A stretch of DNA of 64,000 nt from Bacilli bacterium (GCA_045123185.1 JBGVIL010000020.1:19715-83714), one strand, 5' to 3'; shown: positions 22,603-31,500, numbered from the stretch's first letter. Numbers and translations are program-made. The notes: generated from the letters alone by a model not told the origin.

Positions 22603-23349
22603 TTAATCAAACAAACTTTTCCATAAATCATATACAAAATCTCTTACATGGTCAATTACCGATTTTCCATTTACATCTAATTCCATAAGCCAATTTACAC
22701 CTAAACCTACTAAATAACCAACTGCTGTACCTATTGCAGTACCAACTATAGGAATTGGGATGAATGATCCTACAAATCCACCTAGTTTTGCTAATCCAAT
22801 TGTTGTTAATGAATAAACTGCAGTATTTACAACAGCATTAGATATAATTCTATCAGTACTATATCCTCTGTTATAATCATTAAATGCCCCTTCACCTACT
22901 TGAATTGCGACTGTTATAGCGGCCATTATATTTCCAAATTTATTAAATGCTTTAACATCATCCGCAAAACTATTGATTGCTGCCGTTCTTTGCTTATTCC
23001 AAATTCCAATACCAATATTATTCGGTCTTACAGCATTAACAACACTAAAATATCCGCCTATATATGCTCCATTTAACATCAATTGTAGAGCCGTAGATGT
23101 GCCTTCAAATAAATTACTAAAAGTAGCCCATTCTGGATAATGACCAGTGTTGTCTTTATACATGATCGGATTATTTTTGCAGTAACAATATAAATTAAGA
23201 CCATTTACTGATTCTGGATCTAGATATTCTACATCATCTGGACTTATAAATCGACATAATTCTGGTGAATAATACCTTGAGGATAACCAAAATAACGAAG
23301 TTTCGACAGGGCTATTACGAGTATCCCCATAAAAGATTAACCTATAAAC
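22603..23349 (-). CDS. orphan RHS C-terminal fragment 1 (core-end motif plus toxin tip; frame open upstream of the tracked ATG)
   Basis: The frame upstream of the 186-aa ORF reads ...GDTRNSPVETSLFWLSSRYYSPELCRFISPDDVEYLDPESVNGLNLYCYCKNNPIMYKDNTGH. This parallels VETSLFWVSSRYYSPELCRWISPDSIEYLDPESINGLNLYAYCGNDPVNKYDPTGH in the main protein. Confidence 0.75.
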   Translation of the reverse strand, partial: VYRLIFYGDTRNSPVETSLFWLSSRYYSPELCRFISPDDVEYLDPESVNGLNLYCYCKNNPIMYKDNTGHYPEWATFSNLFEGTSTALQLMLNGAYIGGYFSVVNAVRPNNIGIGIWNKQRTAAINSFADDVKAFNKFGNIMAAITVAIQVGEGAFNDYNRGYSTDRIISNAVVNTAVYSLTTIGLAKLGGFVGSFIPIPIVGTAIGTAVGYLVGLGVNWLMELDVNGKSVIDHVRDFVYDLWKSLFD

Positions 23350-24953
23350 TTATAGATAATCTTTATTTCTCTAAATTTTGTACCATTAATAACTTTCACA
23401 TGACTTACTGTTATATGTGATATTAAATTATTAATGATTTCAGGAGTCAACTCATCAAAGTCAATATACTTTCTTGCTATTTGCTTGAATGTTTCAATAT
23501 TAGCTTCCGTCTTATTCTCCTGAGTAAGTTTACTTTCAATTTCTATTAGTTGTGAGTTTAACTTCTTTTGTTCTTCTTGATACTTATCTAGCATCTTTTG
23601 ATAGTTACTTCCACTTAGTTTTTCTTCTGCTAAATCTTCATATAATCTAATGATGATTGAGTCAATTGTATTAAGTCTAGTAACTATTTTATTTTTCTCA
23701 CTAACTAATACTTTAATGTGTTCATCAGTATCTACTTTATTAACGATGTTATTTATAAATTCATCACTATTTAATTTTAGTGACTTCATTAGTTCCTTTA
23801 GTTTAGATTTAACTATATCATAGATTTCAAGATATCCTATTGTATTAGGTTCATCATCTAATCCATACTTTACAAAATTACCAACACATCTATATCTCCA
23901 TACCATCTTACCACTTCTTCTTTTATTGTAATATAGATTTAGAGGTCTTCCACAATTTTTACATCTAAGAATTCCTTTGAAAAGATTTGGATGGTTATGT
24001 CTAGATGGACGTTGCCTATGTCTAATTAATTCTTGGACATGTTCAAAGTCACTTCTAGATATAATTGGTTCATGTGTATTTCTTACTATGATATGTTCTT
24101 CTTTAGGAACTTTTGTGCATTTCTTGGTTTTATAGTTTTTAACTTCATATTTATGATTTTCCATATCACCAACATAGACCATATCTCTTATGATTGCTCC
24201 TACAGTTACAGTGTTCCAAGATTCAATGTCATAGTTTTTAAACATTTGCCTTCTTGTTTCAGTTAACTTAGTAAATCTTAAGTCACCTTTACTAGCTTTA
24301 TAAATACTTGGAGGCATAATACCCCTTTTATTAAGTTCCCTAGTAATCTTAACTACACCGATATTACTTAATGCTAAGTCAAAGATTAGTCTAACTACTT
24401 CAGCAGCCTCTTCATCTATTACTAAATGATTTTTATCATTTGGATCTTTTTTATATCCATATGGAGGTTGAGCTGCCATAAACATACCTTTTTGCATTAA
24501 TAATCTTTTAGCAGTCTTTACTTTTCTTGAAGTGTCTTTAGCATACATATCATTCAAGATATTTTTAAATGGTGCGATATCGTTATTATCATAAAGTGTA
24601 TCAACATTATCATTAACTGCGATATATCTAATATCATTATCTGGAAAGAATATTTCAATAAAGTAACTTGTTTGAATATGATTTCTTCCTAGTCTTGATA
24701 AATCCTTAGTTAATACTAAATTGATTTTACCATCACTAATATCTTGCATTAATCTTTTAAATGCTGGACGTTCAAAGTTAAGACCACTATAACCATCATC
24801 GATATAATAATCATAAATAGTAAACCCATGTTCTAATGCATATTTCTCTAACATCATTTTTTGAATTTTAATACTTGATGAATCACCCTCATTTCCATCG
24901 TCTAATGATAGACGACAATAAATTGCTGTGTTGTAAAGTTTATTTCGCTTCAT
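23337..24953 (-). CDS. large serine recombinase (resolvase catalytic domain, recombinase domain, zinc ribbon, coiled coil)
   Basis: N-terminal AIYCRLSLDD...DDGYSGLNFERPAF...VLTKDLSRLGRN, zinc ribbon CKNCGRPL...YRCVG, and a Lys/Glu-rich coiled-coil tail; 538 aa. Confidence 0.9.
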   Translation of the reverse strand: MKRNKLYNTAIYCRLSLDDGNEGDSSSIKIQKMMLEKYALEHGFTIYDYYIDDGYSGLNFERPAFKRLMQDISDGKINLVLTKDLSRLGRNHIQTSYFIEIFFPDNDIRYIAVNDNVDTLYDNNDIAPFKNILNDMYAKDTSRKVKTAKRLLMQKGMFMAAQPPYGYKKDPNDKNHLVIDEEAAEVVRLIFDLALSNIGVVKITRELNKRGIMPPSIYKASKGDLRFTKLTETRRQMFKNYDIESWNTVTVGAIIRDMVYVGDMENHKYEVKNYKTKKCTKVPKEEHIIVRNTHEPIISRSDFEHVQELIRHRQRPSRHNHPNLFKGILRCKNCGRPLNLYYNKRRSGKMVWRYRCVGNFVKYGLDDEPNTIGYLEIYDIVKSKLKELMKSLKLNSDEFINNIVNKVDTDEHIKVLVSEKNKIVTRLNTIDSIIIRLYEDLAEEKLSGSNYQKMLDKYQEEQKKLNSQLIEIESKLTQENKTEANIETFKQIARKYIDFDELTPEIINNLISHITVSHVKVINGTKFREIKIIYKFIG

Positions 24954-25003
24954 ATTTGGATACTCCTTTTTATTAAAGCAAATAACCTTTCACAAGCAAG
25001 TAT

Positions 25004-28578: not shown

Positions 28579-28590
28579 AATTTTTCACCT

Positions 28591-31500
28591 CTAAAAATGT
28601 GGATAAATTGGAACCATAGGAACAGGTATTACTGGTACAATCTTCTTCCAATCAACACTACTCCAGTCAAATTTTCTTGCAAAATTAACTATTCCTGATA
28701 GTCCAGCACCGATAGCCGTTTGTAACAAAATTTTTTGTCCATATGGTTTCATAAATACACTTAAGAATTTTTTGGGTTCAAACCAACCACTATTCGTAGG
28801 TATTAATTTTGAACCTATCCAGTTTCCTGCAAATGTAGTAATAAAATTAATACCTAGATCAGCAACTGTTTGCCATCCATTCACAGTTTCACCTCTAATA
28901 ACTGTTTCAAGTGTATCAACTCCTGTTTGAACTGCAGCTCCTAACCCAGCAGCAAAAGCTAATGAAGCTCCACCAGTAAATGGAGACAAACATAACGCTA
29001 ATGCATTTACACCAGAACCTAGAGCAGCACCCGCGACTCCTCGCCATAAATCACTACCTGTTTCGCCGGCAAGTGCATTAGAAGCTAATTGAGCTCCTCC
29101 TCCTATAAGTATCGCAGCTCCTACAATTCCTATAATTGCCCAAATTCCAAAGTGACCTGTAGGATCATACTTATTAACGGGATCATTTCCACAGTACGCA
29201 TATAAATTTAATCCATTGATACTTTCAGGATCTAAATATTCGATTGAATCTGGTGAAATCCATCTGCATAATTCAGGCGAATAGTAACGTGAGGATACCC
29301 AAAATAACGAAGTTTCAACATCATAACAATATCCTTTATATAACAAAGCATTGTGCTCTATCAATAATTCTGATAACTGATGTAAGTTATGATTTACCGA
29401 GTATGGGTTTTCTATAGTTACTTCTCCAAAAGCTGTATAACTATATTTTACCATAACGTTACCATTCGAATCAACAATTTGATTAATATTACCTAATAAA
29501 TCTCGAATATACAAATATGTTTTGCTGTTATATTCAAACCCAAATAATTGATTGTTAATGTCATATAAATAATTAATAATGACATTATCTTTTACTGATT
29601 TTATTAATAAGTCATTATTATAATAATAGTTAGTTATACTATTTTGATTAATCTTTTTTGTTCTTAAACCTAATTCATCGTATTCAAACAATAATTCGCC
29701 GTAACCAGTTAATTCTCCATTGGTCCAAACAATATTAATTTCTTCGTCACCTTTAGTGATCTTTGTCGGTCCTTCTAAACTATTATATGTGAAAGTTGTT
29801 GTTTGACCATTTTTTGTTGTACTTAATAACACATTAGAATATAATTCTTCTGAATCATTAGTAGCATAAGTAAATGTAGTCATATCATTATTTTTGATTT
29901 TTTGAATGATATTACTATTTTGGTCATATGTATATATATATTCATAATCTAAAACAAGACCCTGTTCAGAAATAACATATTTGTATTCTTTTGTTAGTCT
30001 ATTTAAAAAGTCATATTCATAATTGTATTTTTCAATAATGTCACCACTACTATTTACAATTTCTTTAACGACAACATTATTAAAGTCATCATATTCATAA
30101 TTAATTAATTCATTACATGGGTTATATTCTGCTGTAGGAATATAGTTTATATATTCATTTTCATAATAACGATAATGATATGTAAACTCTTTATTATTAC
30201 AATTTATTCTTTTTTGTTTTAGTTTGTTGTCAGAATCAAATTCATTTGATATTGTTATTGGTAAATTATTATAAAACTCATTTAGCAAATCTTCACTTAA
30301 TGTTTGATTAGTTCCATCAACATATTCTATTGAATTGAAAAATCCACTTACATTGTTAATTGGTTTTACAACATTATTAGATACTTGAATATTAGATCCA
30401 ATATAACTAAAACAATCTTCTAATGAATAACTATTAGTATCACCTAAAGTAATTTCATTATTATCATTATAATCATCTAATAAATCCACTTTAATTTTAA
30501 AGTTATCATCATTTATTATTGTAATATTATACCATTCATCAAGTTTTAGATATATATCAGTATCAATAAACTCTATTGTGTTTGTTGTTCTATCATTTTT
30601 AACAACTAAAATTTCTCCCGAATCTTTTAATAAAAGTGCCCATTTTAAGACTTTATTTATATCATAATTAGATAAAATATAATTTTTTGTATTAATTTCT
30701 GGGTATTCCATAAGTTTAAAGTTTATATTTAATGCATACTTTTCTTTTAATCCAAAGTTATATCCAAGTAAAGAATATATCGAATTTTCTAATCTGCTAC
30801 AATGTACATATCGCTTTATAGATGAATCATAATAAAACAAGTCTTTATCATTATTACTAGTAAAATTTTTAGATACAATATAATCTATCGGAACATTATC
30901 ATTAATATATGTACCATTAAGTGGTATGAAACATGTTGTGTTCTTTTTGTTATAAATAATCGCTTGTGATGATTTATCCTCTTTAATACTATTAATGTAT
31001 TTGTTTACTTCATCAATAACAACATTATCTTCTGAATTAATTAATTGCTTATTTCCAACAGATACAAACATTACATCAAAATTAAAACGCTTTTCTGTAA
31101 TGTTTTCATTTTGATTTTCATCACCAATAGTAAATTTATTTAAATTTCCTAATAAATTGTTACAATTAATATCATAAGTATTTTTTTGATTATTTAACCT
31201 AACTTCTAAAATTGAAGTTGCGACTACCTCTATATACATCCATTCATCACAAATTACTTTAATATATGAATTGTATACATCATTAAGAGTTTGTAATTTA
31301 ATATTGTTATTCTCATCTACAACGACTTTAACATAATTTTGACCTGTTCCTTTTAGTGTCAATAATATTGTATTAGTTGTATTTGATAAATTATTAAGTG
31401 ATATTCTAAACCACATTGATATTATTTTATTATCAACAAGTTCTGACTGAAAGCTATCTTTACTATATTTTATACCTAAATATTCTTGACCATCAATTCT

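Follow-up and report, generated by a model that had tools for sequence, protein, structure and literature searches.

We analysed a 64,000-nt stretch of a Bacilli bacterium genome (GCA_045123185.1 JBGVIL010000020.1:19715-83714; hereafter the window, to whose full length all coordinates refer) and found that the segment 29314-23303, at the end of an RHS toxin gene, is probably an integrated cassette carrying a toxin tip, one of a family directed at the 3' ends of RHS genes. This reading is carried by the anatomy of the segment, its recurrence across loci, breakpoints at one GA dinucleotide and the symmetry of two half-sites, called P and P', at its ends. The window is AT-rich (~27% G+C), and all genes of the region lie on the minus strand: a 2037-amino-acid (aa) RHS gene with its deployed toxin tip (tip0), a presumed immunity gene (imm0), four cargo genes, a 53-aa open reading frame (ORF), a 538-aa recombinase gene, two displaced tips with their presumed immunity genes (orphan-1/imm1 and orphan-2/imm2), and finally MarR and ABC-transporter genes (Table 1).

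The large gene has the order typical of RHS proteins, namely a YD-repeat shell, a core-end (...YDVETSLFWVSSRYYSPELCRWISPD...DPTGH) and a variable C-terminal domain, and homologous fragments of its protein carry the TEN_YD-shell. We found that the stop codon of the recombinase lies 32-33 nt from a GA dinucleotide within the V-E-T codons of an rhs core-end, and that the window contains three sites centred on such a GA. At the attL-like site, the B arm consists of the shell codons YKGYCYDV, with GGATAT beginning 18 nt from the centre, and the P' arm consists of the tip0 core-end codons ETSLFWVSS, ending in GGGTATCC; the RHS ORF crosses this junction uninterrupted into a complete tip and stop codon. 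At the attR-like site, the P1 arm is a 24-nt half-site starting 7 nt past the recombinase stop codon. The third site has no recombinase gene: together, orphan-1, imm1 and the P2 arm amount to a 1,429-bp cassette (23302-21874) that lacks a recombinase, and this type of arm elsewhere follows the stop codon of a recombinase clade of 53% identity. A crossover at the common GT(T/C)-GA-AACT core would give the in-frame sequence ...GAT GTT GA/A ACT TCG TTA TTT TGG TTA....

A preliminary description of this stretch had reported that the recombinase ORF overlaps the orphan-1 frame, that RHS homology (VETSLFW) starts shortly after the recombinase stop, and that the intact RHS gene carries a similar segment in the same orientation. 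All three observations held. The recombinase ORF ends at 23337 and the orphan-1 frame, a different one, is open to 23349, giving an overlap of 13 nt (23337-23349); the homology sets in 30 nt beyond the stop, with the GTC codon 23307-23305; and the segment of the RHS gene (29180-29320) is 74% identical over 141 nt, including the near-identical run quoted in that description. A third core-end copy, not mentioned there, heads orphan-2 (21739-21879), so that the window holds three direct repeats of 141 nt with 62-74% identity to one another.

Homologues of the recombinase were gathered from public protein, genome and metagenome data; most came from uncultured gut Bacilli, "Mollicutes", Erysipelotrichaceae and Coprobacillaceae, and a few from Clostridia. 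For the recurrence count we used 52 recombinase 3' ends of 40-100% identity that had 150 nt or more of sequence downstream. A core-end with GA in the V-E-T codons was present at most 120 nt downstream of 39 out of the 52, in several bacterial orders, which argues that the geometry at the window junction is not due to chance; relatives, in which the preliminary description had considered that a recombinase might be missing from this junction, thus do carry one there. The distance from stop codon to GA was 32-34 nt in all clades of 53-100% identity and 27-88 nt at 40-48% identity. Many loci had tandem arrays of two or three recombinases, with a tip and a small ORF behind each. Five further recombinase 3' ends had a core-end GA site within 2 kb, with a DUF1016 gene intervening in three of them. 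A DUF1016/YhcG-like nuclease gene was seen between the recombinase stop and an intact P1 arm at L002:11461-12700, L012:7927-8990 and L013:11617-12680 (L numbers denote related loci), where identity with the window ends at the recombinase stop codon and returns at the P arm.

A hidden Markov model of the core-end, run on six-frame translations, yielded 142 sites, and GA occupied the same position in 139 of them. Over 113 distinct sites GA was the sole invariant, while the flanking trinucleotides varied on both sides (e.g. CTC after GA in L064). B arms were true shell codons (...Y-K/R-G-Y-Y-Y-D-x). P arms were short non-shell sequences specific to recombinase clades, of which P1 (GGATACTCGTAATAGCCCTGTC) is one type and P2 to P6 are five more; they made up 104 of the left arms, against 29 of B type, and headed most orphan tips, including recombinase-less ones such as orphan-2 of the window (P2). 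That P arms are mere decayed shell fragments was rejected, as their length is fixed, their sequence is conserved inside each recombinase clade, and they share symmetry with the upstream tip.

At the level of aligned sequences, the left and right arms reassort precisely at the GA dinucleotide. The window was 96-99% identical to L001, L003, L005 and L024 on the left of GA and 53-63% identical in the 30 nt on the right. The reverse was found for orphan-2 compared to L024 (52% on the left, 93-95% on the right): the orphan-2 segment (20322-21900) is 94-96% identical to L008 and L024, and in L024 it lies behind a P1 arm, the identity beginning exactly at the junction. A four-way alignment (A3) contained all four pairings of two left arms (window shell B or P1) with two tips (S or Q). 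P1-like arms occurred at 60 sites with 29 different right arms, and a 99% identical copy of the orphan-1 tip (tip1) was found behind a different P arm in L063. Only 6 homologues were recovered in the search for the same shell with other tips, one of them useful (P0124/L061): the shell of the window bears a different tip in both, and in L061 it is 98-99% identical up to the GA, with the different tip beyond.

The L061 locus, on a contig of a related strain, joins the isochorismatase gene region to the last ~300 codons of the same RHS shell (95% nucleotide identity), again with the different tip. The corresponding deletion of ~6.4 kb (window 36607-30220) removes a Mur-ligase-like gene and most of the RHS gene, and it rules out L061 as a clean empty site.

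We then compared each P arm with the reverse complement of neighbouring core-ends. The P arm matched the core-end of the upstream (own) tip at 13.9/24 positions and that of the adjacent downstream tip at 10.2/24, compared to 11.2/24 in random P-arm/core-end pairs (first run). The own tip scored higher than the adjacent one in 33 out of 44 deduplicated cassettes (Wilcoxon p = 1.9e-6, the statistics being drawn from related, not fully independent loci). Examples are the P1 arm of the window paired against GGATACCCAAAATAACGAAGTT of tip0, and that of L064 against its own tip GGATACTAGAAATAGATTGGTT, with 15/22 matching positions. This symmetry with the upstream tip indicates that what moves is a unit running from core-end through toxin, immunity gene, terminator and optional cargo plus recombinase to the P arm. 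GA thus fits the crossover dinucleotide with imperfect dyad symmetry that the preliminary description had anticipated, the P and P' arms being symmetric around it, and comparison between loci, as the sole basis, points to a TndX-type site with a 2-bp GA crossover. In addition, the distance from the centre to the start of the GGAYA motif is 22 nt for P arms and 18 nt for B arms. This spacing is reminiscent of the binding motif of the zinc-ribbon domain (ZD), which in attB is shifted ~5 bp inward relative to attP (PMC3783163); we take it as supportive only, since both partners have equivalent core-end sequence as their right arm.

One contig, L014 (JAFTPH010000005.1, 7486 nt), had an exact terminal overlap of 141 nt inside a recombinase gene, which gives a circular or tandem unit of 7,345 bp holding exactly two recombinase cassettes. 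Either an excised circle or a collapsed tandem repeat would account for it. We found no circular single-cassette contigs, L014 being the sole contig with a terminal overlap.

The recombinase itself matched the resolvase catalytic domain PF00239 (E = 4.8e-20), as well as PF07508, PF14287 (DUF4368) and, just below its cut-off, PF13408. Its best match in the PDB was the catalytic domain of TnpX (2MHC; E = 2.5e-29), and the motif of the serine nucleophile (Y-x-R-x-S) was conserved in that alignment (YCRLSLDD against YERLSRDD). It was 36.9% identical over its full length to the annotated TndX of Tn5397, at most 40% identical to anything in plasmid and phage collections, and not on record by exact-sequence look-up. 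DUF4368 is characteristic of those large serine recombinases that belong to the multi-targeting, TndX-like clade (PMC10083194). The conserved recombinase module extends over ~25383-23300 and includes the 53-aa ORF, which lies ~70 nt upstream of the recombinase in all 11 loci where it was found and, from this position only, is a speculative candidate for an accessory or directionality factor.

A complete cassette consists, in order, of a core-end (P' half-site), toxin, immunity gene with terminator, variable cargo, leader element with 53-aa ORF, recombinase and 24-nt P half-site. We propose that, in a circular intermediate, P and P' would come together as a pseudo-palindromic attP centred on GA, and the recombinase, that of the window in the case of its top cassette, would catalyse the reaction of attP with an attB made of the last YD-repeat shell codons (B arm), the GA in the Glu/Asp codon of V-E-T, and the core-end of the resident tip. 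Exchange at the 2-bp GA would join the incoming tip in frame to the shell, where it would use the resident promoter and shell, and the immunity gene would arrive alongside. The former tip and its immunity gene would be displaced downstream behind the P arm, as a silent orphan without start codon or shell. Repeated rounds in the direction of insertion would stack cassettes, and tip0, orphan-1 and orphan-2 would be the layers left in the window. The top cassette (6,012 bp between the GA sites) would be autonomous and may still be active, while some cassettes would lose or lack the recombinase; the second one would need an enzyme of the P2 clade or be decayed.

The reverse reaction (29315/6 with 23303/4) would release the top cassette as a 6,012-bp circle and redeploy orphan-1 in frame on the shell. 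The predicted excision junctions are an attB-like one, AAAGGATATTGTTATGATGTTGA joined to AACTTCGTTATTTTGGTTATCCTCAAGG, and an attP on the circle, GGGGATACTCGTAATAGCCCTGTCGA joined to AACTTCGTTATTTTGGGTATCCTCACG. The preliminary description had put forward a deletion between 29.3 kb and 23.3 kb, and our coordinates agree that it would remove 6,012 bp and fuse the shell in frame to the orphan-1 tip. Its view of the junction as a recombinase-linked site of tip exchange is supported by the reassortment at GA; as to the event, the loci compared document insertion and stacking of cassettes instead, with deletion as a plausible reverse reaction.

Several observations weigh against an integrated, recombinase-driven cassette. 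No shell-fused orphan-1 toxin was present in the best 120 homologues of tip1, all of at most 401 aa, and neither a clean pair of empty and occupied sites nor a single-cassette circle was found for the window element. The canonical asymmetry between attP and attB is confined to the left arm, the right arms of donor and target being equivalent. Mosaicism inside the core-end of L003 and L004 (100% identity, then 83%, then 47%) indicates that homologous recombination also contributes there. The architecture of L064-L069 was identical in six places from several samples, so exchange may be rare on ecological time scales. The incomplete independence of the loci behind the symmetry statistics and the option of a collapsed tandem repeat for L014 point the same way. 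Finally, the DUF4368 recombinase Cp36 failed at attL x attR in human cells (PMC10083194); as it was unidirectional there, excision may need a factor.

The alternative that survives best, which we consider unlikely, is that the element is a fixed resident serving solely for programmed deletion, as a domesticated developmental or phase switch like skin or SPbeta that replaces tip0 by tip1. The preliminary description had drawn this analogy, and it stands as far as the recombinase at the end of the element and the in-frame fusion produced by deletion are concerned; the architecture is also stable across samples, and the conserved leader element and 53-aa ORF upstream could regulate or direct excision. 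What did not stand is the interruption of a gene: unlike sigK or spsM, the RHS gene remains whole while the element is integrated, a tip and an immunity gene come with the element, and both states give a complete toxin. Furthermore, near-identical recombinase modules lie beside many tips, with different cargo, in different genomes and at different chromosomal loci, which argues for horizontal insertion and not for a fixed resident, and the tandem recombinases at many loci speak against a switch as well.

It is more improbable still that tips are exchanged by RecA-dependent homologous recombination between the core-end repeats, with the recombinase as a mere passenger. The three direct repeats would offer a substrate, and the L003/L004 mosaic does show some homologous exchange, but the breakpoints fall at one dinucleotide, upstream of the homology and not inside it, next to P and B left arms that are mutually non-homologous. 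Homologous recombination would also have no need for P arms that are clade-conserved, at a fixed 32-34 nt from the stop codon and dyad-symmetric with the upstream tip, and 74% identity with short perfect runs makes a poor RecA substrate. The RecA-dependent deployment of orphan rhs tips is reported for enterobacteria such as Salmonella (PMC3967940); the preliminary description had likened the geometry to it, and such deployment does not explain breakpoints at one dinucleotide beside non-homologous P arms.

We give hardly any credence to the recombinase being the terminal gene of an unrelated transposon, prophage or integrative and conjugative element that is adjacent to rhs by coincidence: enzymes of the TnpX/TndX type are typically found on mobilisable and conjugative transposons of clostridia, and the cargo between imm0 and the recombinase is unrelated to toxins, but 39 of the 52 homologues, 40-100% identical and from several orders, sit at the same rhs core-end codon, the 6-kb segment has no conjugation, phage or transposon-end features, and no phage DNA match was obtained for 22000-29500 (megablast).

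Table 1. Main features of the toxin locus in the window.
Feature	Position	Strand	Content and basis
RHS/YD-repeat toxin gene, intact, 2037 aa	28591..34704	minus	Delivery shell and deployed tip0; ORF call and Pfam RHS_repeat
attL-like site	29291..29340	minus	B arm, central GA 29315-29316, P' arm
tip0	28591..29314	minus	Core-end and C-terminal toxin domain; predicted 5' part of the cassette
imm0, presumed cognate immunity gene, 128 aa	28192..28578	minus	Putative function, from position right after toxin stop
Cargo: HIT-like, PNP/AMP-nucleosidase-like, 97-aa ORF, 242-aa ORF	25767..28028	minus	Pfam and NCBIfam
Conserved two-helix leader element, ~90 nt	25256..25346	minus	Apical palindrome CTGGGATACCCAG; marks start of recombinase module
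53-aa ORF	25023..25184	minus	Conserved with clade-1 recombinase; tblastn 68-98% aa identity, 11 loci
TnpX/TndX-like large serine recombinase, 538 aa	23337..24953	minus	Resolvase, Recombinase, Zn ribbon and DUF4368 domains (Pfam)
attR-like site	23279..23328	minus	P1 arm GGGGATACTCGTAATAGCCCTGTC, central GA 23303-23304, B' arm (orphan-1 core-end)
Orphan-1 tip, displaced toxin end, shell-less	22603..23302	minus	Frame open from 23349 to stop at 22603
imm1, presumed orphan-1 immunity gene, 140 aa	22171..22593	minus	
Third site	21850..21899	minus	P2-type arm GGATAATCAAGATTATAATGTA, GA 21874-21875, orphan-2 core-end
Orphan-2 tip (21117-21873) and imm2, 165 aa (20608-21105)	20608..21873	minus	

The three small ORFs imm0, imm1 and imm2 lie directly downstream of their tips, and each is followed by a terminator-like hairpin (28134-28163, 22117-22149 and 20548-20581, respectively). 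None of these presumed immunity ORFs had a family match (Pfam, PADLOC). Behind the imm1 hairpin there is a spacer with an inverted copy of the palindromic element (~22070-22095). No upstream start codon or ribosome-binding site was identified for orphan-1. The tip0/imm0 pair shows ~68% nucleotide similarity to the uppermost tip/immunity pair of L001, whose recombinase is 99% identical to that of the window.

Among near-identical recombinase modules the cargo is a mosaic: HIT/PNP genes in the window and, as known defence genes at the equivalent position, an AlwI restriction-modification pair with SIR2 and DUF87 in L001 and AbiH in L064. PADLOC gave no match for the cargo genes of the window, which may form an uncharacterised nucleotide-targeting defence system.

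The leader element was found upstream of the recombinase genes of several clades, with ~50 copies across L001-L059. It comprises a 5' TTGTAAACAGGATAAG box, a long-range helix (GGCGTG/CACGCC, GACGTGC/GCACGTC and AGCTGTGTAA/TTACACAGCT) and the invariant apical hairpin, and its GGGATAC is the outer motif of the P1 arm. RNAalifold gave the apical hairpin alone; the long-range helix was first suggested by eye and its pairing counted afterwards, so the count (93% of cells paired and 4 covarying pairs, with 22-43% paired in slid controls) is biased toward the proposal. No Rfam match was obtained at the element (19000-37000 scanned). It may act as a regulatory RNA or as a palindrome bound by the recombinase. 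In the metagenome loci L071-L100, many P1 arms had no preceding recombinase and followed short conserved non-coding sequences instead; in 7 cases the palindromic leader element stood ~30 nt before the P1 arm. Such loci look like mini-cassettes that lack a recombinase. We also observed three direct copies of ATATCCCTTCAATAGTAACGGAC(A/T)TTT, 73-77 nt apart, upstream of the recombinase module (25430-25606), and a fourth copy downstream of imm2 (20392-20418).

No secretion-system genes were seen near the RHS gene, its neighbours being a Mur-ligase-like gene, an isochorismatase, a NAPRTase and a 1048-aa cell-wall amidase with Listeria-Bacteroides repeats. The only Rfam hit in 19000-37000 was a sub-threshold one to the Bacteroides small RNA BTnc231, in the intergenic region upstream of a 196-aa ORF (36664-36767, minus strand; 32 bits, with a gathering score of 80.4; E = 0.003), and probably arose by chance.

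Taken as an integrated tip cassette, the segment would appear closer to Tn5397 with TndX at its domain-coding target, to SCCmec and to integron cassettes than to skin or SPbeta. TndX alone integrates and excises Tn5397, GA is the obligatory central dinucleotide of its targets, and it prefers a sequence coding for a Fic domain (PMC4430133). The family of the window shares with TndX (Tn5397) and TnpX (Tn4451/Tn4453) the protein architecture, including DUF4368, the central GA and, in the case of TndX, a domain-coding target, but it targets the rhs V-E-T codon, replaces the 3' end of the gene in frame, and has a tip and an immunity gene as payload rather than resistance or conjugation genes. SCCmec/ccr islands are likewise driven by large serine recombinases, insert at the 3' terminus of a conserved gene while leaving its ORF intact, and form tandem composites with variable cargo, but their target is rlmH and no functional protein domain is exchanged; on the NCBIfam Ccr models, the window recombinase scored 99.8 bits for CcrC and 95 for CcrB, each against a cut-off of 900. 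In integrons, promoter-less cassettes are likewise caught behind a resident expression signal and stacked by arrival, many without a recombinase of their own, but these systems use the tyrosine integrase IntI, folded single-stranded attC sites and whole-gene cassettes, in contrast to the serine recombinase, the GA-centred pseudo-palindromes of double-strand style, the in-frame 3' gene segments and the many recombinase-bearing cassettes described here. The skin/SpoIVCA and SPbeta/SprA elements, again with a large serine recombinase at the edge of an element within coding sequence and an in-frame gene upon excision, interrupt the gene they occupy, and their excision takes place in a terminal cell type and involves a directionality factor, while in the window family the integrated state is a complete toxin gene and the elements are horizontally mobile and stacking.

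The cassettes of enterobacterial Rhs and other polymorphic toxins have a constant shell, a variable tip with immunity gene, and displaced tips kept downstream as orphans, as in the window; the known route of exchange there is homologous recombination in the shared core, compared to a serine recombinase with defined half-sites at the junctions here. In polymorphic toxins, one recombination event delivers toxin and immunity gene, and recombinases are mentioned only beside polyimmunity loci (XerC/D) (Zhang et al. 2012, PMC3482391). No prior description of Rhs tip exchange by a serine recombinase was found in the literature searched (Rhs with serine recombinase, DUF4368, rhs att sites). We conclude that the combination is new, in that a recombinase clade has the rhs core-end codon as its attachment site and an in-frame replacement toxin tip as its payload.

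More tentatively, and with our doubts outweighing our confidence, gut Firmicutes may possess an integron-like serine-recombinase system, in which cassettes of tip, immunity gene and defence cargo, mobilised by themselves or in trans, enter in frame at the GA of V-E-T, and in which recombinase clades co-evolve with their own core-end codons. The reaction would be reversible in that case, so that clonal populations could switch from tip0 to tip1 via the 6,012-bp circle, perhaps under the control of the leader element and the 53-aa ORF.

Homologous recombination with orphan cassettes is the usual explanation for how polymorphic toxins (Rhs, CDI, LXG) diversify. A dedicated site-specific recombinase acting on defined 50-bp sites would account for the in-frame capture of new toxin-immunity pairs, their immediate expression and their archiving. 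The restriction-modification, SIR2 and AbiH cargo links arsenals of interbacterial competition to mobile anti-phage defence genes. The clade-specific half-sites would represent natural orthogonal large serine recombinases with predictable attP/attB pairs, which could serve genome engineering, and the active switching of deployed toxins becomes a question that is directly testable.

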